From an uncultured Candidatus Bathyarchaeia archaeon (GTDB lineage: Archaea > Thermoproteota > Bathyarchaeia > Bathyarchaeales > DTEX01): 64,000 nucleotides of DNA. Shown here one piece after another: positions 3,541 through 17,069 of the stretch. The stretch is taken from assembly GCA_964584965.1 (NCBI GenBank), contig CAZPBM010000023.1, positions 713-64,712 on the forward strand. Reading direction: 5' to 3'. The notes below the pieces were generated by a model that was given only the letters and a program-made list of their open reading frames with translations, was not told the DNA's origin and ran no database searches. Numbering within the stretch: the stretch's first letter is position 1; the number at the start of each line of letters is the position of its first letter. Made by a program: the position numbers and the translations under genes.

Positions 3541-6012
3541 CTAAGTTACTTCTATGAACGCATCTTCTGACAGCTCGTCATATTTTTCGGTTTCTACAGG
3601 TTTACCAAAAGAAAGGTTTACGATTCCGTGCATGGCTTTAAGGTCGTCTTTTAATGGTTCAAGCTGAACCGGTGCAAATATTTGAGCCTCCAGCTTCTCG
3701 CTTAAAGCTAAACCTCGGTTTTTCTTGTACCGCCACACAGCGTTGTTGAACTCGACAAGTTTCGGAAGCAACTCTAAATAGCTACTTCTCCAGTTTGAGG
3801 TTTCTTTTGGAAAATCCTGAAGGTGTATACTTTGTTTTGAGTAGAGTTCAAGCCATAAAGCTTCAGTTATGAATGGACAGATGGGAGCTAACAATTTTAG
3901 AACGGTCTCTAAACATTTATGTAACGTAAACCAGGCGCCTCTTTGAAGTTCTAAGCTAAATTTTCCACCTCTGTTGTAGGCTCGAGACTTTACTGCTTCG
4001 AGATAATGGTCTGCAAACAAGTTCCACGTAAAAGTCCTAATTGCAGTAGCAACTGCGAAAACGTTCATCTCTTCATATCCTGCAATGCAATCGCGGATGA
4101 GTTCATTGAGTCTTCCCAAAATCATCAAGTCAAGTGGTGCAAGTTCATATTTTTCATGCGTTTGTGGAAATGAAGAAATGTATCTAGCTATGTTCCAAAG
4201 CTTTGTTAGAAACTTCGAGTTTCCTTGGATCCTTTCAAACGAGCATCTTATGTCGCCACGAGTTATGTTGCCTTCCAAACCGGACCAAATTCGGAAGGCT
4301 TCGGCTCCAAACCTGTTTATTGCTTCTTGAGGATCAATCCAAGTTTTAGGATTACTTTTACTTATTTTTCTACCCTCTTCGTCAACAACGTGCATGTGTA
4401 TCCAGACGTTTCGGAAGGGCGCCTTGCCAAAAAGCAAATGAGATTTCAACATAGTAAAATAAAGCCAGTTTCTAACAATTTCTTTCCCTTGTGGTCGAAG
4501 GCTGCACGGAAAGCTTTTTTCGAAAAATTCCCCGCCCCAGAGTAATCCGAGTATGTAGGCTTCAGACGTGGCTGAGTCAAACCAAGTGTCGAAAGTTCTA
4601 TCTTCACCGCGAAACTCAGTGGAGCTGCATTTTGGACACTTGTCTATTGGAGGTTTTTCTTTCCAAGGCTGATAATATCTTTCTGGCTTTGGAACATATA
4701 CATAGTCACAGTTTTTACAGTACCAAAGTGGGATTTCAGTTCCATAATATCTTCGTCTTGAGATAACCCAGTCTATGCCCACCGAGTTTATCCAGTCGAT
4801 GAGAATTTGTTTACTTTCAGGTGCAAAAAAGGTCATCTGATCAGTCATTTGCAAAAGAGCATCTTTAAATTCAACTTGCTTAAGGTAAATTTCCTTCATT
4901 GGCACAAACTCAATTGGATTTTTGGATCTCCAACAAATAGGTCTCCTCTGCACAAGTTTCTCAGTCTTCACATACAAACCTTGATTTTTTAAATCTTCGA
5001 TAATTCTTTTTCTAGCTTCTTTAACTGAAAGACAAGCGTATTTTCCCGCATTTTGGTTCATTTTTCCCTTGGAATCTATCGAATAGACAGGATCCAAGCT
5101 AAGTTCTCTTAGTATGCGAACGTCGCTGTAGTCACCGAAACTGCAGATCATAACGAGTCCTGAACCAAACTCAGGCTTCGCATATGAATGAGGCTGAATT
5201 TCTACCGAGTTTCCATAAATGGGTACGACTGCATGTTTTCCCTCAAGGTTGTTGTAACGTTCGTCTTCGGGGTTAAAAATTACGGTTCTACATGAACACA
5301 GGAGCTCAGGCCTAGTTGTCGCTATAACCAAATCTTGCCCAGTTTCTTGAAGCTTGAATTTTATGTAGTGCAGCTCTGTTTCTTCTTCCTCATATTCCAC
5401 CTCAGCGTCAGATATTGTTGTTCCGCAGACTGGGCAATAGTTCGTTGTCTTCTCGTCTTCGTAGACGAGTCCCTTGTTCCAAAACTCGATGAACGTCTTC
5501 TGAGTTAGTCTACGATATTCAGGATCATCAGTCTCATATCTTCCGCCCACTTGGTGTTCAAGGTCCCAAGAATTACAGCTTAGTCCTAGTCTTTTGAAAG
5601 TGTCAAGAGACCTGTCGCCGCTTTCTTGAAGTATGCGTCGGCATTTTTCTATAAATTCTTCTCTGGGAGTCTCATGCATAGAGATCTTGTAGTACTTTTC
5701 GGTTTGAACCTCAACTGGTAAGCCATTCTTGTCCAATCCCATAGGAAACAGAACATTAAATCCCGCCATCCTTTTGTATCGTGCGAAAACATCCATCCAA
5801 GTATACGTAAAAGCTTGACCGATATGAACCGGAGTATTCACGTATGGAGGCGGCGTGTCAATGCTGAAAACCGGCTTTTTACTCGTTTTGTCGAATCTAT
5901 ATATTCCCTCTTTTTGCCACTTCTGAAAAAGCACAAGTTCGATCTTTGGATCCCAAGTCTTCATGGTTAGACTGGGTTTGAAAGTTTGAGAACCTTCAGT
6001 TTCCATAGACAT
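3541..6012 (-). CDS. valS: Valine--tRNA ligase (archaeal type)
   Basis: FSIDTPPPYVNTPVHIGQAFTYTWMDVFARYKRMAGFNVLFPMGLDKNGLPVE matches the class I ValRS N-terminus. The KMSKS-type loop reads GRKISKS. Length is 823 aa. Confidence 0.9.
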   Translation of the reverse strand: MSMETEGSQTFKPSLTMKTWDPKIELVLFQKWQKEGIYRFDKTSKKPVFSIDTPPPYVNTPVHIGQAFTYTWMDVFARYKRMAGFNVLFPMGLDKNGLPVEVQTEKYYKISMHETPREEFIEKCRRILQESGDRSLDTFKRLGLSCNSWDLEHQVGGRYETDDPEYRRLTQKTFIEFWNKGLVYEDEKTTNYCPVCGTTISDAEVEYEEEETELHYIKFKLQETGQDLVIATTRPELLCSCRTVIFNPEDERYNNLEGKHAVVPIYGNSVEIQPHSYAKPEFGSGLVMICSFGDYSDVRILRELSLDPVYSIDSKGKMNQNAGKYACLSVKEARKRIIEDLKNQGLYVKTEKLVQRRPICWRSKNPIEFVPMKEIYLKQVEFKDALLQMTDQMTFFAPESKQILIDWINSVGIDWVISRRRYYGTEIPLWYCKNCDYVYVPKPERYYQPWKEKPPIDKCPKCSSTEFRGEDRTFDTWFDSATSEAYILGLLWGGEFFEKSFPCSLRPQGKEIVRNWLYFTMLKSHLLFGKAPFRNVWIHMHVVDEEGRKISKSNPKTWIDPQEAINRFGAEAFRIWSGLEGNITRGDIRCSFERIQGNSKFLTKLWNIARYISSFPQTHEKYELAPLDLMILGRLNELIRDCIAGYEEMNVFAVATAIRTFTWNLFADHYLEAVKSRAYNRGGKFSLELQRGAWFTLHKCLETVLKLLAPICPFITEALWLELYSKQSIHLQDFPKETSNWRSSYLELLPKLVEFNNAVWRYKKNRGLALSEKLEAQIFAPVQLEPLKDDLKAMHGIVNLSFGKPVETEKYDELSEDAFIEVT

Positions 6013-6360
6013 TCACCAATCTTTCACAAATTTCGTCAAAGAGGAAAGAAGATTCGAAAATATTTTTTAACAAAGGCCCTTTTCGGGCTAAAGTACTTGG
6101 TAATGGCGGTGCATTGGCGCCAATCGAACCACCTTTCCTCCAGCAAACAGTTATTTTCTAATGAACGGGTTGTTTCATATAAATATAATCGTTTCGGAAG
6201 TACATTTGTTTCTTTTTATCTGTTGAAAGTTATTAAAGACATAGAATCAGATAATGAAAAACACATATTACTATTATCATTCTTCATTGGAAAAGTTCAC
6301 CACCCTCTATATCTATTTTTTATGATTATCGGTTGTTTAGAAGTCCAAAATTCAGAGATT

Positions 6361-6915
6361 TTATTTTTTGGTTCTCTTTTGTTTTGTTGTGACAGAATTC
6401 TCAAGAAGCATATAATATGAGGCTTCGTCGTAGAAGGTTCCGTTTTTACGGATCCGTTTTCGCCTGATTTTTTCAAGTTTAAATCCAGCCTTCTCTGCGA
6501 CGTGTCTCATCGCATAGTTGTCAGCGCGGGTTTCAATCTCTAACCTAACTATGCCGCTCTTTTTGGCCAGCTTAAGTGCTGACTTCATAAGTCGTGTGGC
6601 GATTCCTTTTCCCCAAAAATCCGGGTGTACACTAATACCTATGGCCGCCACATGATCCATATATGTTCCGTACCGCCAAAGACCAAGAAAACCTGCAACT
6701 CTATCACCGTTTTTTGCAACCAAAATTTCGGCTTTTCGGTTCTTAGGCAAGTTTCGAAAGAACCGCCTGTAAGCTAAATATTCTCTTTCAACATTAGTTT
6801 CTACGCGTATAATGAGCCATTCTCGCACCTTTTCGTGGCATTCTATCTCAGCAATAGCTTTTACGTCTTTAACCTTTAGCTTTGTTTGTTTTGCGTTAAT
6901 AATTTCAGTTTTCAA
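6361..6915 (-). CDS. GNAT family N-acetyltransferase
   Basis: The acetyl-CoA binding region reads HPDFWGKGIATRLMKSALKLAKKSG. Length is 184 aa. Confidence 0.8.
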   Translation of the reverse strand: MKTEIINAKQTKLKVKDVKAIAEIECHEKVREWLIIRVETNVEREYLAYRRFFRNLPKNRKAEILVAKNGDRVAGFLGLWRYGTYMDHVAAIGISVHPDFWGKGIATRLMKSALKLAKKSGIVRLEIETRADNYAMRHVAEKAGFKLEKIRRKRIRKNGTFYDEASYYMLLENSVTTKQKRTKK

Positions 6916-7069
6916 GATGTCCCTCCAAAGGGATGAAACAAAAGACCAAGCCAGAATTATTTAAGCTTTATCTTCAGTGTTCTTCTGCTCATATAGCACG
7001 TAAAAAAATTAGTAGTTAAATATAAAAAACTAAATAATTGTCATCCTGTAAATTGAGAATGTAACCGCC

Positions 7070-8095
7070 ATGACCATAAAATATGACAAAAAACGAAGAA
7101 ACATAATAGTTGGGGTTCTTTTTAATACTCCTGTTGAGCCATTAAAGGGTGAGGAAATAGATTTTATTGCTGATGCAGAAGTTAAGGAAGTAGCAGAAGC
7201 TGTTCAGAAAGCCTTGGAAAAACTGGGTTTAGAATACCAAATGATACCTTTTGAGATGGACTTTGAAGTTTTGGTTAAGACACTAAAGCATCGTAAACCC
7301 AACGTAGTCATAAATCTTTGTGAAGGAGCTTATGGAGATAGCCATCAAGAAATGAACATTCCTGCAATTCTTGAAATACTCAGAATACCTTATACTGGCT
7401 CCTCCCCATTAACACTTGGGATATGTCAAAATAAAAGGCTTACAAAAGAGATATTAAGAGCAAACAGGTTACCAACACCTAAATTTACAATTCTGGAAAA
7501 CTTTAGCGACTGGAAGAAAGAAATAAGATTTCCCTTATTCGTCAAACCTTCAAAAGAAGACGCAAGTATCGGCATTTCAAGTAAAAGCTACGTAAGAAAC
7601 GAAGCTGAACTTAAGGCCCAAGTTGAATACATACATAATCGTTACAAGCAACCAGCATTAGTAGAAGAATACGTGGCTGGAAGAGAGCTTAACGTGTCAA
7701 TTCTAGGCAACGAGAATCCAATTGTTCTTCCAATCTCTGAAATAACGTTCGATTTTTCTGAAGAACCAAAAATAGTTGACTTTTCAGCTAAATGGCTAAA
7801 AGAAAGTGAACAATACAAGAAGACAAAACCAGTATGCCCAGCATTACTCCCGGCATCTGTAAAAAATAAAATAGAGGAAATCGCATTGCTCGCATACGAA
7901 AGTCTTTATTGCAGAGATTACGCACGAATTGACATACGCCTAAAAGGAAATCACCCACTGATTCTTGAAGCTAACCCTAACCCTGACATAGCACCCGATG
8001 CAGGGTTCGTTCGTTCGTTAAGGGTTGCTGGAATATCTTACGAACAGTTTATCGAAAAAATAATTCATTTTGCTCTACAAAGAGGATCCAGCTAA
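7070..8095 (+). CDS. ATP-grasp enzyme, D-alanine--D-alanine ligase-like (paralog A)
   Basis: The layout is Ddl-like: a pre-ATP-grasp N-domain (VVINLCEG...IPYTGS), FPLFVKPSKEDASIGIS, QPALVEEYVAGRELNVSILGNE, and ARIDIRL...ILEANPNPDI. Confidence 0.75.
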   Translation: MTIKYDKKRRNIIVGVLFNTPVEPLKGEEIDFIADAEVKEVAEAVQKALEKLGLEYQMIPFEMDFEVLVKTLKHRKPNVVINLCEGAYGDSHQEMNIPAILEILRIPYTGSSPLTLGICQNKRLTKEILRANRLPTPKFTILENFSDWKKEIRFPLFVKPSKEDASIGISSKSYVRNEAELKAQVEYIHNRYKQPALVEEYVAGRELNVSILGNENPIVLPISEITFDFSEEPKIVDFSAKWLKESEQYKKTKPVCPALLPASVKNKIEEIALLAYESLYCRDYARIDIRLKGNHPLILEANPNPDIAPDAGFVRSLRVAGISYEQFIEKIIHFALQRGSS

Positions 8096-8114
8096 AAAAG
8101 AAACTGAAAGTAAT

Positions 8115-9170
8115 TTACAGTAAACTAACCATTGAATGATTTTCGAATAAATGTTGAAGATTATATCTTTTCAAGGCTTGCCAAAGAATTGTACAAATTA
8201 GCTGGTCATAATCAATACCTGCTGCGGAAGCAGCTTCTGGAAGGCACGAATGAGCATCAGGATCAGGAATTAAGCCGGGCAATGGGTTAACTTCCAATAC
8301 TCGGGGCTTACCTGCTTTGTCAAGTCTTATGTCCATTCGGCAAAGATCTCGACAGTTAAGGACACGGAAAGCTTTAACTGCAATTTGTTTTATTTCTGTT
8401 TCAAGTTTAGCTGGAACATCAGCTGGGCAACAGAAGATGTCAAGTGGTTTCTTTGGTACATCCCAAATCCATTTTGCCTCATAAGAATAAATTGGGCTGG
8501 CTTCGCTTGGAAGTTTTTCAAGCAAAATTTCGACTATCGGAAGGACAAAAGGATTTCCGTTGCCGATTAAGCCAACAGTGAACTCTCTACCTGGAAGAAA
8601 TTCTTCCACAATTGCTGGTTGCTTGTAAGTGTTGATAACCCAGCTAATTTGGTCTCTTAGACTCTTTTCATCTTTTACTAGAGACTTAGTCCTAATTCCT
8701 TTGCTTGAGCCTTCAGCTAATGGTTTAACGATTAGAGGGAACTCGAACTTCCGTTTTCTTTCTTGGTTAGGTGACGAAAACACTTGAAAATTTGGTGAAG
8801 GAACACCGTTGGCTTTAAGGAATTGATGCGTTAAAGCCTTATCTAAGGCTATGGCTAAGGTGAGTGGTCCTGAACCAGTGTACGGTATTCCCAGCATTTC
8901 CAACATTGCGGGAATTTGAGATTCTCTGCTTTCGCCTCTTAACCCTTCAGCAATGTTGAAGACAATGTCCGGCTTCAGATTTTGAAATTTGTTGTATGCA
9001 TCTTCGTTTGCTTCTATTTTTAATACTTCGCATTTGCCTTTCCTCAAGGCTTCCGCTATGGCGTGAACTGTTGTTTCATCATCAAATTCAATGTAGAAAT
9101 CTTCAGGTTGCTCTGAATTCTGGTCCACTGGCTTCTTAATGTTATATGTTAATCCAACATGAAGTGTCAT
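8115..9170 (-). CDS. ATP-grasp enzyme, D-alanine--D-alanine ligase-like (paralog B)
   Basis: FPLIVKPLAEGSSKGI, QPAIVEEFLPGREFTVGLIGNG, and CRMDIRLDKAGKPRVLEVNPLPGL. It lies 9 nt downstream of, and co-directional with, the KamA-like gene. Confidence 0.75.
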   Translation of the reverse strand: MTLHVGLTYNIKKPVDQNSEQPEDFYIEFDDETTVHAIAEALRKGKCEVLKIEANEDAYNKFQNLKPDIVFNIAEGLRGESRESQIPAMLEMLGIPYTGSGPLTLAIALDKALTHQFLKANGVPSPNFQVFSSPNQERKRKFEFPLIVKPLAEGSSKGIRTKSLVKDEKSLRDQISWVINTYKQPAIVEEFLPGREFTVGLIGNGNPFVLPIVEILLEKLPSEASPIYSYEAKWIWDVPKKPLDIFCCPADVPAKLETEIKQIAVKAFRVLNCRDLCRMDIRLDKAGKPRVLEVNPLPGLIPDPDAHSCLPEAASAAGIDYDQLICTILWQALKRYNLQHLFENHSMVSLL

Positions 9171-9179
9171 TGTCTTTCA

Positions 9180-10274
9180 CTAGGGTACCTTTACAGGGAC
9201 CTCCATAGGTGATGTAACTGGTTTTTCCTTTGGAATTTGTGGGTAAGTGAACTGTTTTCCCTCATAATTTTTCATGATGACCTGATTTTCCTCGAGGCTT
9301 ATAAGGTATCTTGGGAGAATAGGTATCTTTCCTCCACCACCTGGTGCGTCTATAACATATCTTGGAACAGCGAAACCAGAAGTGTAACCTGTAAGGTCTT
9401 CAATTATTTTAAGTCCTGTTTCTACTCTTGTTCTGAAGTGATAGGTGCCTTTAACAAGATCCATTTGAAAGAGATAGTAGGGTTTGACTCTGATCTTCAG
9501 AAGCTTTTGAACAAGGCTTTTCATAGTTTCAGAGTTGTCGTTGATTCCTTTAAGAAGCACTGACTGGTTGCCAAGAGGGATTCCTGCATCAGCAAGCAGT
9601 CCGCATGCCCTAGAGCTTTCTTCAGTTATTTCCCTTGGGTGGTTAAAATGCACATTAACGTATAATGGGTGGAACTTCTTTAACATGTTGCACAATTTTG
9701 GCGTTATTCTTTCTGGTAATGTGCAGGGTACTCTCGTTCCAATTCTTAGAATTTCGACATGTGGAATTGCTCTTAGACTTTTCAGTAAGAACTCAATTGT
9801 ATTGTCGGGTAACAGTAGGGGGTCTCCTCCTGACAACAGGACGTCTCTAATAGCTGGGGTTCTCTGAACGTAGCTTATTTGTTCAAGCAAAACTTCCTTT
9901 GAAAGGTTAATCAGTGGTAAGCCAACCCTCCTTTTTCTGGTGCAAAATCTACAGTACATTGCGCAGCTGTTTGATACGCACATTAAAACTCGGTCAGGGT
10001 AGCGGTGAACTAAGCCAGTTGTGGGGCTGTCGCCTTCTTCATTCAACGGGTCTTCAGTGCCGTATGGATCTTGTAATTCAAGTGGGCTTGGAATACATTG
10101 TTTCCAGATTGGATCGTCGACTTCTTCTATTAGGTTAAAGTAGTATCTTGAAACTTTCATCGGGTACTTAGCGACAACGCTGTCCAAAGCTTTTGTGTCA
10201 ACAGAAAATTTTTCGAGGAGTTGATGAGGTTTAGTTATACATTCAGAAAGACTTTTTTTCCAACCTTCAACCAT
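9180..10274 (-). CDS. KamA family radical SAM protein (lysine 2,3-aminomutase-like)
   Basis: The radical SAM cluster motif is CAMYCRFCTRKRR. SGGDPLL, HFNHPREITEES, GNQSVLLKGIND and VIDAPGGGGK (PLP lysine) closely follow clostridial KamA. Confidence 0.85.
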   Translation of the reverse strand: MVEGWKKSLSECITKPHQLLEKFSVDTKALDSVVAKYPMKVSRYYFNLIEEVDDPIWKQCIPSPLELQDPYGTEDPLNEEGDSPTTGLVHRYPDRVLMCVSNSCAMYCRFCTRKRRVGLPLINLSKEVLLEQISYVQRTPAIRDVLLSGGDPLLLPDNTIEFLLKSLRAIPHVEILRIGTRVPCTLPERITPKLCNMLKKFHPLYVNVHFNHPREITEESSRACGLLADAGIPLGNQSVLLKGINDNSETMKSLVQKLLKIRVKPYYLFQMDLVKGTYHFRTRVETGLKIIEDLTGYTSGFAVPRYVIDAPGGGGKIPILPRYLISLEENQVIMKNYEGKQFTYPQIPKEKPVTSPMEVPVKVP

Positions 10275-10487
10275 TTTGTTGTAACACGCGCTGTGACACT
10301 TTCATGCCACGAAAAAAATATGCGATTCTGTACGTGCTTTTAAATCTTTCTATTATGTTTGTCTCAAATACAATAAAGATAGTTTTTTGGAAAAAACAAT
10401 AACATTTTGTGATTACGGATTGTGTTCACGATGTGTGCCTTATCCTTATATGTCAACACATGAAGTTTCTCATTAAGGTGAAAATTA

Positions 10488-11819
10488 ATGGACACTGTAA
10501 ACGTTCAGTCCGGATCAATGGAGGTTCTCGACAGAGTGGAAGGTGACCTTAACTTAGCTAATGGAGCGACGATTAGGGCAAAAGATTCCAAAAAAGTTCT
10601 GGTTACAGGAATTGTTCAGTATGATGGTGACTGCGTCTTTGAATGTAGTCTTTTTGCTAATTCAATAAGAGGAAGAAACGGAAATCTCACAATTCAAGGG
10701 GATTTAGAGGTTGAAAAAGCTATTAAAATACATGAAGGCAGTCTTAGGGTTGAAGGGAACCTAGAAACAGTAGATATTGAGGTTGATAAAAGCGTCGTAA
10801 TTGAGAGAAATCTTTCTGCTGAGATCGTTGAAGTTGGTGGAAAACTCTCAGTTGGGGGAAACACTAAAGCAAACGAAGTAGAAGTTGGTGGAACCTTTGA
10901 GACAAAGGGCGACATTGCAGCTCAAAAACTGGAGGTTGGCGGAACAGCGAAAATAGAAGGCTCCACAACCGTTTCAAAGATTGATGTTGGTGGCACGTTT
11001 TATGGAAAGGGAACAGTAAAAGCTGAAAAAATAGATGTTGGAGGCACGTACACATGTGAATCAAACATGGACATCGAAGAATTATGTGTTGGAGGAACAG
11101 CGAAGATCGTAGGAGGTAAAATAAAAGGAAGAGTTAACGTCGGTGGAAGCTTTGATTCCAGCAAACCATTAATTTTTGAAGTTATCGATGTTGGTGGAAA
11201 AGTTGAACTCCGAGGCGAAAGCGAAGGAAAAAAAGTTTCAGTGGGCGGAGCCCTACGTACTGAAGGTAACCTGAAGTTCGAGGATGTCGATGTTGGCGGA
11301 ACCGTGGAGATTCACGGAGACGCTGTAGGTGAAACGATTGATGTAGGCGGCAAACTTTCTGTTGAGAAAACCATAAAACTGTCTGGTAAATTAGCGGTTG
11401 GAGGAGTAGCTGAGGCTGGCAACGAGATTCTTGCTGAGTCGATTGGTGTTGGCGGTTTATTAAAGGCTCAAAAAGTTGAGGCAGCTTCTTCTGTTGACGT
11501 CGGCGGAAGAATAGAAACCGTTTATGGAACAAAAGCTGCGAAAGTTGAGATTGGAAGAAAAGGTAAAATCATTGGGGTTGTTGTAGCGAAAGAAGTGATT
11601 ATTGAGGAAAAAGCCGAAGTCGAAGACATATATGCCGAATATCTTACTATGGAAGAAGGGTCAACTGCAAAAAACGTGTATGCAAAGAAGATCCGCTTGG
11701 AAAGAGAATGTAAGATAACTGGAGAATTACGCTACACTGATGAGTTGAGAAAAGACCCGACCGTAACCTTATCCAAGGAATCAGTTAAAGTCACAGAACT
11801 TCCCCCTCCTCCAATTTAA
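10488..11819 (+). CDS. Bactofilin-like (polymer-forming cytoskeletal, beta-helical repeat) protein
   Basis: The protein is 443 aa. VGG recurs with a 17-residue period across aa 116-340 (pattern [DE]VGG[TK]...), as expected for stacked beta-helix turns of the bactofilin/DUF583 type. The C-terminus ends in the proline-rich ELPPPPI. GGTGA lies 8 nt upstream of the ATG. Confidence 0.65.
   Translation: MDTVNVQSGSMEVLDRVEGDLNLANGATIRAKDSKKVLVTGIVQYDGDCVFECSLFANSIRGRNGNLTIQGDLEVEKAIKIHEGSLRVEGNLETVDIEVDKSVVIERNLSAEIVEVGGKLSVGGNTKANEVEVGGTFETKGDIAAQKLEVGGTAKIEGSTTVSKIDVGGTFYGKGTVKAEKIDVGGTYTCESNMDIEELCVGGTAKIVGGKIKGRVNVGGSFDSSKPLIFEVIDVGGKVELRGESEGKKVSVGGALRTEGNLKFEDVDVGGTVEIHGDAVGETIDVGGKLSVEKTIKLSGKLAVGGVAEAGNEILAESIGVGGLLKAQKVEAASSVDVGGRIETVYGTKAAKVEIGRKGKIIGVVVAKEVIIEEKAEVEDIYAEYLTMEEGSTAKNVYAKKIRLERECKITGELRYTDELRKDPTVTLSKESVKVTELPPPPI
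10833..11507 (+). repeat. Intragenic 51-nt (17-codon) periodic repeat array, about 13-14 units
   Basis: The first residue of VGG falls at aa 116, 133, 150, 167, 184, 201, 218, 235, 252, 269, 286, 304, 321 and 338. The matching DNA shows recurring gttggtgg / gttggcgg / gttggagg strings. Confidence 0.8.
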
Positions 11820-12091
11820 GCTTCAAACTTTTTTGCTAAGACCCAGAAACTTGAGTACGCCTATGCTATATTAAGAGCCGGCATTTCGTCTAGCTGTGAC
11901 TGTTTTGAACGACGTAAACTCTTGCTTGAGATTGGGACAATTACTTTTGTATTAAAAATTGGCGGAGACAACCCGTCATTTCAGAAAAACAAGTCTTTCA
12001 ACAGTTTGGCTGTAAGAGATTATAAGCATGGTCGTTCATAACGTTTCTTGAAAAATAGCATTAGTTGTTCTAAAAAATATTAAAAAGGGAT

Positions 12092-12370
12092 TTGAAGATA
12101 GTTTCGTGGTGGCGCGAACTGGTTAGACGGACAAGATATGAGATTTACCTTGCTATTCTTGGGACGGTTAGAAGTAAAGGGGCTTGTCCAATTACGAGGT
12201 TGTCTTACGCTGCCCGTCTTCCTGTTGACAGAACCAAGAACGTGGTTGAGTTTTTGCTGTCTCGAGGACTTTTGAAAGAAGTAAACATTGGCGACAAAAA
12301 GCTTTATAGGATAACGAACAAGGGAGGAGAGTTCCTCGAAGCCCTACGGGTTGTCAGAAAATTCGTTTAA
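12092..12370 (+). CDS. Winged-helix DNA-binding protein (small archaeal wHTH regulator)
   Basis: The 92-aa protein reads RYEIYLAILGTVRSKGACPITRLSYAARLPVDRTKNVVEFLLSRGLLKEV...YRITNKGGEFLEAL, a typical wHTH layout. It starts at TTG. Confidence 0.6.
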   Translation: MKIVSWWRELVRRTRYEIYLAILGTVRSKGACPITRLSYAARLPVDRTKNVVEFLLSRGLLKEVNIGDKKLYRITNKGGEFLEALRVVRKFV

Positions 12371-12381
12371 CGTTTACTATG

Positions 12382-12798
12382 TTATGAGGCTTCTTCTTTC
12401 AGTTTTTCTTCGAGGCTTTTGACCTTTCCATGCTCTAAGACTGTTATCTTTGTTTGAAGGTGAACTCTGAGGCCTAGACGGCGGAAAAGCCCATAAAGAT
12501 CTCCACCAGAAATTTGGGTTTTAAGCTTTCCAGCTTTAATAAGATTTACGAGCGTGTTCTCTACGTGTTCAGCTGCTTGCGGGTACTGGGCCTTGGCTGC
12601 ATTAAGGACCTCCCAAGCTCTGTCCACAAAAAAGCGGTTTAAGATTTCTTGTTTGTTAACTGCTTGTTCCTCTTTAACCTCGGTCTCGGTTTTTCTTTCA
12701 AGCTGCCTTTTGAGTTCAAGCAGCTTTTTCCGCCTTAAGGATTCAAGTTCCCGATCAGACATAAATTTTAAGCCCGCCTTGTCCGTGCAGTGTAACAA
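12382..12798 (-). CDS. PDCD5/TFAR19-like DNA-binding protein
   Basis: LESLRRKKLLELKRQLE is followed by a charged linker and then a helical bundle (ILNRFFVDRAWEVLNAAKAQYPQAAEHVENTLVNLIKAGKL), as in archaeal PDCD5 homologs. The likely start is MSDRE at 12762. Confidence 0.55.
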   Translation of the reverse strand: MLHCTDKAGLKFMSDRELESLRRKKLLELKRQLERKTETEVKEEQAVNKQEILNRFFVDRAWEVLNAAKAQYPQAAEHVENTLVNLIKAGKLKTQISGGDLYGLFRRLGLRVHLQTKITVLEHGKVKSLEEKLKEEAS

Positions 12799-12916: not shown

Positions 12917-14191
12917 CTAAGATTGGTTCGTTAGCTTGTATCTCAGAATGGCTGCTATTCCGCCGAAGGATTTCCAAAGCATCTGTCCCTCCTCGGTTTC
13001 TGTGGAGATTACTTCAACGTTTGTGTTTGTCTGTTCAGCGAGTTCAGCCAGTTCATCCACTATATCTTTTCGTTCGCTTACTTGAAGCGTTGGAGTCTGA
13101 CATTTTGGGCATGGGACACCTGAGAAGGACTGCTCAAACTCAGCAACCTCTGTTGTCTTCATCGTTTTAAAGTAGGCGTGCCCGCATGAGGTGCATTCAA
13201 CCTTAACCCGCGTGGTGTTAAGGGCTTCTGAAAGAAGTAGCGTGTCAACTAGGTTTGCGTTCAAAGCTCTCCGGACTTCCTTTTCTCCGTAAGTTGCCAG
13301 TCCAGTATCATGCCCAATTTCGTAAAGGAATTTCTGGACAATCCTCTTTTCCTCAACGTATCTGACGTTTTTGATAATGTCGGGAGCTCTCTCAAGAATT
13401 TCGTCGATTCCCTGCTCACCTGTGTAAGCCGTGTCCACGATGGCGACGATTTTTTCCTTAAGCCTGTAGTCGATGTATCGACCCTTGTCAAAATCGTACT
13501 TTGTCGGTCCAGCACCCCCTAAGATGATGCCCTTAAGGTCCGGAATTAAGAGGAAATTCTCGTTTGCGTGCGTTCCCACACGTTTAAAAAATTCTTGAAC
13601 CTGCATTTCACGTAGTCTCTCGAACCTTCGGGCAGACTGTCCTCCTGCACGGTGCTTACCTGGAATTCCAGAGGTTATTTCTTCAATAATTTCCATCCTG
13701 GACCCTCGAAGGGCGGCAAAGGTAGCTGCGCTCGTGTCGATTAACAGGATTCCGTATGTTTCAGTTTCTTTCAGCAAATCCATAAGGTACTCAATATGAA
13801 ACTTGTTATCGCAACGGTAAAGGTAAATACCGATAGGCTCAGGCGGGATGACGACGTAGGGTCCTTCAATTCTTTCGCTTCCTAAGCCGTTTTGAGGAAT
13901 TGCGCCACAAAAAATGACCAACCCGTTTTCTGGAACGGTTCTGAAGAGCTTTAGACGCTGGATGACTTTGACAATTGCGTCTTGAACGTTCTTCCGAGTA
14001 GTATTTGACTTAATGTTTGAAGCTGTTCCCCACTCATCCTTAAGCATCTGGGCTACTTCGCTTATCTGGCGTCCAGGAGGAACATAAAGCGAAACAAGCT
14101 CCGTGCCCCTTCCCTCTTTGCGAGCCAGATAATCCAATGTCCTTTTTAAACGAAACCTTTCAAGCGATGTCCTCTTCTGGCTCATTACCAT
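12917..14191 (-). CDS. prf1: Peptide chain release factor aRF1
   Basis: The NIKS motif (TASNIKSNTTRKNV), the GGQ motif (HRAGGQSARRFERLR) and GTELVSLYVPP are all present. Length is 424 aa. Confidence 0.95.
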   Translation of the reverse strand: MVMSQKRTSLERFRLKRTLDYLARKEGRGTELVSLYVPPGRQISEVAQMLKDEWGTASNIKSNTTRKNVQDAIVKVIQRLKLFRTVPENGLVIFCGAIPQNGLGSERIEGPYVVIPPEPIGIYLYRCDNKFHIEYLMDLLKETETYGILLIDTSAATFAALRGSRMEIIEEITSGIPGKHRAGGQSARRFERLREMQVQEFFKRVGTHANENFLLIPDLKGIILGGAGPTKYDFDKGRYIDYRLKEKIVAIVDTAYTGEQGIDEILERAPDIIKNVRYVEEKRIVQKFLYEIGHDTGLATYGEKEVRRALNANLVDTLLLSEALNTTRVKVECTSCGHAYFKTMKTTEVAEFEQSFSGVPCPKCQTPTLQVSERKDIVDELAELAEQTNTNVEVISTETEEGQMLWKSFGGIAAILRYKLTNQS

Positions 14192-15782: not shown

Positions 15783-17069
15783 TTGTTTGTGTGCGAGTCG
15801 GGAAAGTGGGACATGAAACATCTTATCGTCGGAATTGATCCTGGCGTAACCGTGGGTTTGGCCGTGCTCACGTTAAATGGTGAGTCTGTGCTGACTGAAA
15901 GCAGACGCAGCTGGAGCTTCTCTGACTTGATTAAGGCAATCTCAGAGTTAGGTGAAGCCACAATAGTCTCCAGCGACGTTTCCCCTGCTTCTGAGCTTCT
16001 AGAACGGATTTCGCATAAACTGAACGCTGTGCTCTTTGTCCCGTTGTCTTCAATGGCTGCCAACGAGAAACGACAAATAGCGAAGGAATATGCTCAAAAT
16101 TTCGAGTTCAAGATCAGAAATGTTCATGAGGCTGATGCTTTAGCAGCAGCAGTAAAGGCTTACAGACATTACCAAACAAGGTTAGAGCAGGTGGAAGAAA
16201 AATTGAAACGGTTAGGTCTTGATCCTCTCGTTGATGAAGTGAAAAACCTTGTAGTAAGGGGATACACTGTAAAAAGAGCGGTTCAGATGCTTCAAGACAC
16301 TAAACGCGTTAATTCTCCAAAAATTGTGAAGAAGGCGGTTCCAAGAGAAGAGCACTTAAAGGACATGATTGCCGAGCTTGAGGTGAGGTTGAGCTGGGAA
16401 CAACAAAAAGCCGAATCTCTCAGACTGGAAAACAGGGAACTTCGGATAAAGCTGAAAACCTTAGAGTCTGAAATTGCTTCCTTAAAAAATGCTATTGAAA
16501 AAGAGAGAAGTAGGCAGCAAATAGAGATTAGGCGTGAAAGAGAGTATGAAGTCTTGTCGGATGAGCTCCAAAAAGCCAAGGCTAGGCTGTCTGATCTTTA
16601 TGTGCAACTTGAAGATTACAAGCATCGTTTCGATGAGGTGCAAAGGCTTAGAGAGCAAGAATCACAAGGAAAAACAGTTCTTCTTAAGCCGATTGAAGCC
16701 TTTACAGAGAACGGGTTGCAAAAAGCCTTCTATCTTTACGGCATAAAAGCGGGCGACTCAGTTTTACTTCTCAACCCAAGCGGAGGGGGCGCCGTGACCG
16801 CTGAAAAATTGTCTAAGAGGGGCATTAGGGTAGTTGTCGCCCAAGGGTCAATGTCGCATCAAGCCCAAGAAGTCTTTACGCAGTACAGAGTTCCAGTAGT
16901 TTCTGCTGAACGTCTGAAAGTAGAATGGCTAGATGGGTTACCGTACGTTAATTCAGAAGCCCTTAGGAAGGTTGTGAAAGAGTCTAGCCAAACAGAGGTT
17001 GTAAAAGCATACGAGGAAATTAGAACTCTTTTAGAAAATCACCGAAAAGAGATTACTGGAAAAGATTAG
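15783..17069 (+). CDS. DUF460 domain protein (RNase-H-like N-domain plus long coiled coil)
   Basis: The N-terminus IVGIDPGVTVGLAVLTLNGE is typical of archaeal DUF460. The central part is a heptad-rich E/K/R/L segment (aa ~190-290). The likely start is MKHLIVG at 15813. Confidence 0.7.
   Translation: MFVCESGKWDMKHLIVGIDPGVTVGLAVLTLNGESVLTESRRSWSFSDLIKAISELGEATIVSSDVSPASELLERISHKLNAVLFVPLSSMAANEKRQIAKEYAQNFEFKIRNVHEADALAAAVKAYRHYQTRLEQVEEKLKRLGLDPLVDEVKNLVVRGYTVKRAVQMLQDTKRVNSPKIVKKAVPREEHLKDMIAELEVRLSWEQQKAESLRLENRELRIKLKTLESEIASLKNAIEKERSRQQIEIRREREYEVLSDELQKAKARLSDLYVQLEDYKHRFDEVQRLREQESQGKTVLLKPIEAFTENGLQKAFYLYGIKAGDSVLLLNPSGGGAVTAEKLSKRGIRVVVAQGSMSHQAQEVFTQYRVPVVSAERLKVEWLDGLPYVNSEALRKVVKESSQTEVVKAYEEIRTLLENHRKEITGKD

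Follow-up and report, generated by a model that had tools for sequence, protein, structure and literature searches.

The 64,000-nucleotide (nt) stretch analysed here (the window; positions 713 to 64,712 of contig CAZPBM010000023.1, assembly GCA_964584965.1, from an uncultured Candidatus Bathyarchaeia archaeon) carries on its plus strand a gene for a long repetitive protein and, downstream of it, a gene for a small basic one. The former (10488..11819, the end coordinate including the stop codon) is an open reading frame (ORF) with an ATG start encoding a protein of 443 amino acids (aa), referred to below as the rod, whose description as a beta-helical member of the bactofilin superfamily is based on a match to the Pfam family PF04519, a structure predicted with AlphaFold2 (AF2) and 179 homologues. 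The latter (12092..12370) encodes a 92-aa protein with a net charge of +12, classified as a winged helix-turn-helix (wHTH) protein of the HTH_45, Sso10a-like type from its match to PF14947, a sequence match in the PDB and synteny. That the rod belongs to the bactofilin superfamily, and that the wHTH protein is its partner, we consider very probable.

The tripeptide Val-Gly-Gly (VGG) occurs in the rod at aa 116, 122, 133, 150, 167, 184, 201, 208, 218, 235, 252, 269, 286, 304, 321 and 338. A first-pass annotation of the DNA, made from the letters alone, had read VGG every 17 residues from aa 116 to 286 and again at 304, 321 and 338, and this is confirmed: 14 of the tripeptides lie in one register with a 17-residue spacing and one 18-residue step (286 to 304), while the other two (aa 122 and 208), which that annotation had not listed, fall inside a turn. 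Over aa 113-345, lag 17 gives the protein a self-identity of 29% and lag 34 one of 32%, as against about 15% at the lags that come next. In the DNA, self-identity at a lag of 51 nt is 43.9%, as compared with 31.0 ± 1.8% in 1000 codon shuffles (maximum 36.5%), and the periodicity of the rod is far above chance. The lags of 102 and 153 nt equal that of 51 nt in strength, which suggests a 34-aa (two-winding) super-unit within the VGG repeats. Tandem Repeats Finder, run on 10000-12500 with a minimum score of 30, found no repeat, indicating that there has been no recent tandem duplication of the DNA. The annotation had also described a 51-nt periodic DNA repeat at 10833-11507. Its span, which is exactly that from the first V to the last G of the in-register VGG series, and its period both stand; the 51-nt signal itself is weak and codon-level, the units being old and divergent and their period being held at the protein level.

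Three ORFs on the minus strand within the rod gene (10694-10915, 10864-11064 and 11182-11532) are rich in 'PPTS' repeats. These ORFs read the reverse complement of the GTNGGNGG repeats, and an equivalent antisense ORF family is present in 77 of the 77 rod loci compared, so that they are frame artefacts and not genes.

Scored against the whole rod, PF04519 gives 46.7 bits (cut-off 27.9, E 3.8e-12), with three stretches each reaching E<=0.01. Repetitive proteins of giant size can sum a PF04519 score from weak stretches, and for this reason the parts of the rod were scanned separately. The segment aa 61-171 alone scores 35.7 bits and covers profile positions 6-97 of 98; the N-terminal 115 aa score 17.6 bits (profile positions 8-94), the VGG block (aa 113-345) 26.4 bits (positions 36-91) and the C-terminal 104 aa 23.9 bits (positions 14-83). 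Since a single fragment covers nearly the entire profile, these scans show a true match to the full-length domain, and bactofilin-like windings appear to make up the entire chain. A sub-threshold match to the NCBIfam model 'choice-of-anchor A' (20 bits, cut-off 29) was rejected.

The rod profile also matches giant proteins of 2000-4500 aa (P0207, P0232, P0244, P0250, P0251, P0254, P0257), in 10-19 stretches each. One of them, P0251, reaches 123.8 bits on PF04519 with zero individually significant stretches. The same type of winding therefore also builds very large solenoids, and summed Pfam scores need care.

The full-length AF2 model, built with a 54-sequence alignment, has a pLDDT (predicted local distance difference test) value of 97.5 and a predicted template modelling (pTM) score of 0.88. 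It is all-beta, with strands from aa 2 to about 422 and no helix as assigned by DSSP, and has no low-confidence segment (none with pLDDT <50), the termini standing at pLDDT 91 and 87 and the last blocks at 96 and 87. When a fragment of seven windings was modelled on its own, it reached pLDDT 97.3 and showed one 8-residue and one 4-residue strand per 17 residues. The bactofilin-like beta-helix anticipated by the first-pass annotation is thus upheld by the PF04519 score, which exceeds the curated cut-off, by the all-beta model, in which strands recur per ~17 residues, and by a period that equals one bactofilin winding. Comparison of the full-length model with the PDB using Foldseek gave no significant match, the best being RsaA (E 0.37), followed by generic beta-helices. 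With the seven-winding fragment, the chain of highest probability in the PDB was the bactofilin BacA (2n3d; probability 0.75, template modelling (TM) scores 0.45/0.52, root mean square deviation 7.4 A, with a non-significant E of 0.25), and the TM-scores to 6rib and 6ria were 0.21-0.38. Foldseek copes poorly with solenoids. With phmmer, aa 68-149 of the rod aligned in register with BacA over about 80 residues, at a weak E of 0.12.

Three zones of windings and a tail can be told apart along the chain. The N-terminal part (aa 1-112, 10488..10823, plus strand), delimited from DSSP strands and the PF04519 fragment match, comprises about six degenerate windings of 17-23 residues that are devoid of VGG. 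Its strands start at residue 2, with strand pairs beginning at about 2, 19, 36, 54, 73 and 96, and it carries a conserved VEGDL (aa 17-21) and a conserved GDCxFEC. The regular block (aa 113-355, 10824..11552, plus strand), delimited from the VGG positions, the family logo and the fragment model, contains 14 windings of 17 residues, one of them of 18. A logo of 955 family units gives the consensus winding x-[IVL]-[DE]-V-G-G-[ST]-[VLFA]-x-[VI]-x-G-x-[LAV]-x-[GFA]-x, in which G5 and G6 are conserved at 100%, V4 at 91% and D/E3 at 76%; hydrophobic residues occupy positions 2, 4, 8, 10, 14 and 16, and glycine positions 5, 6 and 12. This inward hydrophobic pattern points to three short strands per turn, which is bactofilin geometry. 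The C-terminal part (aa 356-422, 11553..11753, plus strand) would add about four windings with a period of 16 residues, as indicated by a PF04519 fragment match and by the autocorrelation of both hydropathy and identity, which peak at lag 16. The C-terminal ~100 aa form the best-conserved non-VGG region across the family, with the motifs IGRxGxVxGP, VEDVYA, ARNVY and GEVxYT.

About six N-terminal, 14 regular and about four C-terminal windings add up to about 24, an estimate from DSSP strand pairs and sequence periods that corresponds to a length of about 11 nm at 0.47 nm per winding. As modelled, the rod would be a single uninterrupted solenoid of about 24 windings, equivalent to about four canonical bactofilin domains set end to end. 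The first-pass annotation was right in proposing a rod much longer than the canonical domain, which has 6 windings. It had counted only 13-14 turns, flanked by non-repeat N- and C-terminal regions; this part does not hold, as the strands of the AF2 model run from residue 2 to about 422 and both flanks partly match PF04519, so that they count as windings.

The chain ends in a tail (aa 423-443, 11754..11816, plus strand) defined from the homologue alignment and predicted by AF2 to be ordered, the last residues of which are KVTELPPPPI. The proline-rich end (ELPPPPI) had already been noticed in the sequence, and it proves to be conserved: the motif in the family is K-V-x-x-L-P-x-P-P-[ILVF]-COOH, with 61 of 113 full-length homologues having LPxxP[ILVFM] at their extreme C-terminus and 85 of the same 113 having KxxxL[P/S], and K434 and P439 are conserved in at least 90% of the homologues. 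A reading of the LPxPP tail as a MIM2-like ligand for Vps4/MIT was considered, but no evidence for it was found, and it was not adopted.

The rod is acidic (net charge -16, family median -15) and shows neither a signal peptide nor a membrane segment, the highest Kyte-Doolittle mean over 19 residues being 1.01. For lack of such hydrophobic segments, the rod is predicted to be cytoplasmic. The first-pass annotation had considered that the protein might instead be a secreted adhesin with an overlooked signal peptide; neither a signal peptide nor a membrane segment was found, and no anchor either. The wider idea of a secreted or surface fibre (an adhesin, an S-layer-associated protein or a tail-fibre-like protein) could draw on a weak match of the family profile to the phage tail fibre 9cuy_g (E 1.4e-6) and to the tail fibre PHROG 4549 (E 1e-4), on fold matches in BFVD, which are long viral fibre proteins, and on the giants of 2000-4500 aa that bear similar repeats. 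The TM-scores to viral fibres are low, though (0.13-0.48), and reflect a generic solenoid shape; moreover, the rod gene lies among housekeeping genes, such as those for aRF1, a class I tRNA synthetase and a PDCD5-like protein, with no phage genes around it, and its conserved partner is a predicted cytoplasmic DNA-binding protein. A surface fibre is therefore highly improbable.

The 179 homologues were collected from the protein database at E<=1e-5, the best being 53% identical to the rod, while the closest relative (L008, 84% identity) is found in a metagenome-assembled genome (MAG) assigned by GTDB to the Bathyarchaeota. Most members of the family come from Bathyarchaeia, some from Nitrososphaerota, and others from the Asgard groups Thor-, Hermod- and Promethearchaeota. 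An exhaustive profile search retrieved 180 representative clusters at E<=1e-30, 944 at E<=1e-10 and 4019 at E<=1e-3. To judge from these profiles, the family is small and distinct, and stays separate from the main body of canonical bactofilins. Full-text literature searches pairing bactofilin with archaea, with 'winged helix' or with the lineages concerned returned no description of the family or of the rod-wHTH pairing. The homologues bear the database labels 'polymer-forming cytoskeletal protein' or 'CcmA (bactofilin family)'; JGI calls some of them 'predicted acyltransferase (DUF342 family)', and some carry precomputed PF03961 hits. This uncharacterised family is thus already annotated in databases.

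The JGI label is one of the points in favour of a rod acting as an enzyme or as a ligand- or ion-binding beta-helix, for example of the acyltransferase-like left-handed hexapeptide-repeat (LbH) type or as a solenoid binding Ca2+ through its D-V-G-G turns. Others are the weak Foldseek matches, which include LpxA, GlmU, FwdC-type beta-helices and a Ca2+-dependent antifreeze beta-helix, and the ladder of Asp/Glu residues (76% acidic) that adjoins the GG turn. All these fold matches have E>0.1 and TM <0.3, however, and the rod has no hexapeptide-repeat, acyltransferase or PF03961 Pfam match at E<=1. In addition, its period of 17 differs from the 6 or 18 that goes with the LbH signature, and it bears no catalytic domain. 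Such a role is consequently very hard to credit.

Homologue lengths mostly fall between 388 and 441 aa, with modes near 389, 407 (the main mode) and 438-441. In an alignment of close relatives, the rod of the window carries an insertion of 34 aa, i.e. two windings, relative to the forms of about 407 aa, and homologue P0002 one of 17 aa. The length of the family thus changes by whole windings (17 or 34 residues), which is what a comparison of repeat number among orthologues, proposed in the first-pass annotation, has revealed. A circular test on homologue lengths did not single out period 17 (R = 0.28 for periods 15-18).

Two bacterial labels were encountered among the sequences. The contig of locus L044 (DASPWZ010000049.1), labelled 'Candidatus Dormiibacterota bacterium', carries the archaeal module and matches locus L045 (DASPWY010000101.1), from a Bathyarchaeia MAG of the same study, with an identical E-value for the partner (2.2e-31) and identical spacing; it is probably a mis-binned archaeal contig. 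A similar mis-binning may account for P0063, labelled 'Candidatus Angelobacter sp.'.

The wHTH protein encoded downstream of the rod scores 53 bits against PF14947 (HTH_45; cut-off 25.5), and its best match by sequence among solved structures is Sso10a (1r7j; E 0.0024), with AspA weaker. A hidden Markov model (HMM) was built from five partner sequences and applied to the 72 loci with enough flanking DNA. In 71 of these 72, a partner orthologue (E 1e-21 to 1e-41) lies beside the rod gene and on the same strand, directly downstream in 39 loci (median distance 13 nt past the rod stop codon, with some overlaps of 3-6 nt) and directly upstream in 32. The order of the two genes thus inverts between loci, while adjacency and strand are retained. 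Even when relaxed to E<=10, the same HMM found no second match in the 64 kb of the window. When the ORFs of the 77 loci were clustered, the wHTH protein was the sole recurrent neighbour family, all others being present in at most 15 loci. The linkage between rod and wHTH is near-obligate, on the same strand, and is kept across phylum-level divergence, inversion of gene order and domain fusions. The charges of the two proteins are also complementary, the median of -15 in the rod family facing +12 over only 92 aa in the partner.

In nine loci the partner is a longer protein with a C-terminal extension, which is KaiC-like in seven from Bathyarchaeia (L023, L025, L027, L042, L043, L047, L001) and a cyclase in two from Nitrososphaerales (L006, L076). 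L023, L001 and L006 were scanned with Pfam, the others being assigned by ORF length and visible similarity. The KaiC-like ATPase extension is preceded in some cases by a weak BatD/DUF11-like match, and the cyclase is of the class III adenylate/guanylate type. These extensions suggest that the module is wired to differing signalling outputs. One MAG (CAYGVX01, ERP119294_co3_385) contains two paralogous modules (L028 and L042), one with a short wHTH gene upstream of the rod gene, and the other with the rod gene followed by a wHTH-KaiC fusion.

A direct fusion of the two partners occurs in P0111 (433 aa; a cluster of 5 member sequences from a source without contig information), in which the windings of the rod proceed as far as 'VEDIYAE' and are followed by HTH_45, the last windings and the tail being replaced. 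P0111 lacks exactly the conserved C-terminal part of the rod, which would fit a role of that part in recruiting the partner, although this is one isolated example that may be an artefact.

Some loci have room for a further gene between the two. Locus L009, whose rod is 66% identical to that of the window, has a 229-aa ORF (5368-6057, plus strand) between the rod and wHTH genes, and L010 and L014 (64% and 69% identical) have similarly long rod-wHTH gaps, with room for an extra gene by spacing. In L005, where the wHTH gene is upstream, a 249-aa ORF (4029-4778, plus strand) with a sub-threshold match to the DUF6036 nucleotidyltransferases separates it from the rod gene; the Thorarchaeota loci L063 and L067 show the same spacing as L005. 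In the window, the gap between the two genes (11820-12091) contains no ORF of at least 40 aa, and a scan of the whole window against Rfam returned no match, so that the gap holds no known RNA.

Some putative expression signals flank the rod gene on the plus strand. They were inferred from the sequence, and comprise a TATA-like A/T-rich element, CCTTATATG, at 10444-10452, a Shine-Dalgarno-like AGGTGA at 10476-10481, 6 nt before the ATG, and a tract of six T (11829..11834) 10 nt past the stop codon, which may be an archaeal oligo-T terminator. A scan for sigma-70 promoters and terminators gave nothing above shuffle controls, the model being bacterial and inapplicable to archaea.

On the other side of the rod gene, a gene for a KamA-like radical-SAM lysine 2,3-aminomutase (9180-10274, minus strand) is divergently oriented, and beyond it are two genes for ATP-grasp proteins of the D-Ala-D-Ala-ligase type (8115-9170, minus strand, and 7070-8095, plus strand) and one for a GNAT acetyltransferase (6361-6915, minus strand). 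The cluster 6361-10274 may serve the synthesis of a beta-lysine-derived peptide or of a compatible solute. The first-pass annotation had placed the rod divergently from a KamA operon; the gene is indeed there on the minus strand, but its neighbourhood is not conserved beside the rod in the 77 loci, and it was rejected as a functional context. Downstream of the partner are genes for a PDCD5-like dsDNA_bind protein (12382-12798, minus strand), which is syntenic in L009, for aRF1 (12917-14191, minus strand) and for a DUF460 protein (15783-17069, plus strand). These downstream genes bear out that the setting is an archaeal chromosome; the neighbours also include a class I tRNA synthetase, and no phage genes surround the rod. 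Two further readings of the locus were discarded. As to a defence system, PADLOC gave 0 matches for the rod, and for the partner only a weak similarity to LmuC/CARF-type wHTH proteins (E 2e-4 or weaker); as to a phage origin, PHROGs gave just the weak tail-fibre match (PHROG 4549, E 1e-4).

The canonical bactofilin domain has 6 right-handed triangular windings of about 17 residues each, is about 3 nm long and has a stacking repeat of 4.7 A, while the disordered N-terminal tail carries a membrane-targeting motif in which a basic residue comes after a hydrophobic doublet (10.1101/617639). The windings of about 17 residues, the glycine turns and the hydrophobic core are features that the rod shares with canonical bactofilins such as Caulobacter crescentus BacA (2n3d), Thermus thermophilus TtBac (6ria/6rib) and Helicobacter pylori CcmA. 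All of them also end in a proline-containing C-terminal tail, which in the rod is short and predicted to be ordered. Unlike them, the rod counts about 24 windings per chain instead of 6, and it lacks both the disordered N-terminal tail and the membrane-targeting motif, its termini being predicted to be ordered.

These features bear on the possibility that the rod is simply a classical bactofilin cytoskeleton, assembling end to end into membrane-associated filaments for cell shape or positioning, with the wHTH protein as a mere regulator of the operon. PF04519 membership and the beta-helical model are in line with it, as is the name 'polymer-forming cytoskeletal protein' given to the homologues in databases; furthermore, ends that stack by beta-strands are strongly prone to polymerise (10.1101/617639), and the halofilins, archaeal relatives of bactofilins, control cell shape (PMC11459167). 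However, the N-terminal membrane-targeting tail is absent, the N-terminus (MDTVNVQSGS) being polar, poorly conserved and engaged in a strand at aa 2-6, and both termini are predicted to be ordered (pLDDT 91 and 87) and not to be disordered proline-rich tails. Nor would one expect a simple autoregulator to be found joined in one protein with a KaiC-like ATPase, a cyclase or the rod, or to stay adjacent through an inversion of gene order across phyla. On balance, we regard this explanation as unlikely, though worth keeping in view.

The archaeon Haloferax volcanii has the halofilins HalA and HalB, which also belong to the bactofilin superfamily and have beta-helical windings (PMC11459167); the rod differs from both. 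HalA consists of two 6-winding subdomains arranged head to head through an alpha-helical hairpin, whereas DSSP assigns no helix to the rod; HalB has a signal peptide, five transmembrane helices and an extracellular 5-winding domain, whereas the rod has no signal peptide or membrane segment. The distribution is also different, the rod being found in Thermoproteota and Asgard archaea, and the halofilins mainly in Euryarchaeota.

The closest functional analogy to the rod-wHTH pair is found in Bacillus subtilis. BacE and BacF (YhbE/YhbF) belong to a '13 windings' cluster of bactofilin-like proteins with bacterial and archaeal members (PMC11459167); they share an operon with the helix-turn-helix (HTH) protein BacR (YhbD), bind it and reduce its binding to DNA (PMC13649987). 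Here too, long bactofilin-like helices are combined with an HTH partner. The rod has about 24 windings as compared with 13 in the BacE/BacF cluster, from which it is set apart by description and not by sequence, and its partner belongs to HTH_45 (PF14947) while BacR is a DUF4004 protein; the two arrangements are analogous rather than homologous. Other beta-helical scaffolds tied to DNA-binding proteins and to chromosome organisation are the BacNOP-PadC-ParB system of Myxococcus xanthus and the beta-helix insert of Metallosphaera SegB (PMC12284271). The former uses a ParB-like adaptor and SegB is a ribbon-helix-helix protein, whereas the partner of the rod is a wHTH protein; across the 77 loci, neither a ParA nor a SegA ATPase is a conserved neighbour of the rod; and the helix of SegB has 14-residue repeats and forms a different solenoid from that of the rod. 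As for Sso10a (1r7j, 4hw0), the similarity with the partner, a small, strongly basic HTH_45 protein, is weak, and orthologues of the partner, unlike Sso10a, may have a KaiC-like ATPase or a class III cyclase appended at the C-terminus.

From the near-obligate and co-oriented linkage we infer that the rod and the wHTH protein act together, as one functional unit. We lean towards a reading in which the rod is a cytoplasmic bactofilin-type solenoid of about 24 windings that would serve as a scaffold binding its predicted DNA-binding partner. The contact sites could be the C-terminal windings, which are strongly conserved, together with the KxxxLPxPP[ILVF] tail, or else the acidic Asp/Glu ladder along the rod. 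The rod might then either keep the partner off the DNA, working as a switch like BacE/BacF on BacR, or anchor the DNA-bound partner to a larger assembly. Such a specific mechanism of binding or sequestration, suggested by the analogy with BacE/BacF, is conceivable but doubtful.

Several observations weigh against this scaffold reading, some of them concerning the rod itself. Giant repetitive proteins also build up a PF04519 score, and a Pfam match alone is no proof of a cytoskeletal role. The structural support consists of AF2 confidence scores and DSSP strands. The Foldseek E-values against solved bactofilins are not significant, which indicates a remote relation, and the family profile, when compared with PDB sequences, misses the bactofilins 2n3d and 6ria at E<=1; only a phage tail fibre and the LbH domain of eIF2B-epsilon were matched. 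Other observations concern the pairing. The link between rod and wHTH comes from genomics, and adjacency could also mean only that the wHTH protein controls the rod gene's transcription. A distance of 272 nt, longer than is usual for the pair, separates the two genes in the window, and with the T6 tract past the rod stop codon they might be transcribed separately. Finally, the junction in P0111 falls at a 'DIYA' string shared by both genes, and could have arisen from a deletion-fusion or as an assembly artefact.

A bolder version of the partnership was also considered. According to it, the rod and the wHTH protein would form a previously undescribed two-component module, widespread in Bathyarchaeia and present also in Nitrososphaerota and Asgard archaea, in which the rod would be a DNA-like decoy or polymeric sink. 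Bearing an Asp/Glu ladder with one rung every 0.47 nm, the rod would titrate the wHTH protein, taken to be of a chromatin type or a regulatory one, onto the chromosome and away from it. Docking would fall to the conserved C-terminal KxxxLPxPP[ILVF] peptide, and through its variants the partner would link the switch to KaiC-like ATPases or to the synthesis of cyclic nucleotides. As a whole, this version seems to us quite unlikely.

The length of the rod is the extreme of a known trend and not a new kind of protein, 13-winding bactofilin-like proteins being on record (PMC11459167). The value of the finding is rather in the conserved two-gene module and in its reach into Asgard and TACK lineages. 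Bactofilins are among the few cytoskeletal families common to bacteria and archaea, and in archaea experiments have been carried out only on the haloarchaeal halofilins. Thermoproteota and Asgard archaea retain a very different version, a single-chain rod of about four times the canonical length, tuned by whole windings, and its linkage to a wHTH protein gives a testable handle on its function. If the rod does not polymerise, it would represent a use of the bactofilin fold as a spacer of fixed length rather than as a filament. More generally, the coupling of an HTH protein to a bactofilin scaffold, so far described only for BacR-BacE/BacF of B. subtilis, may be a broader and older principle.

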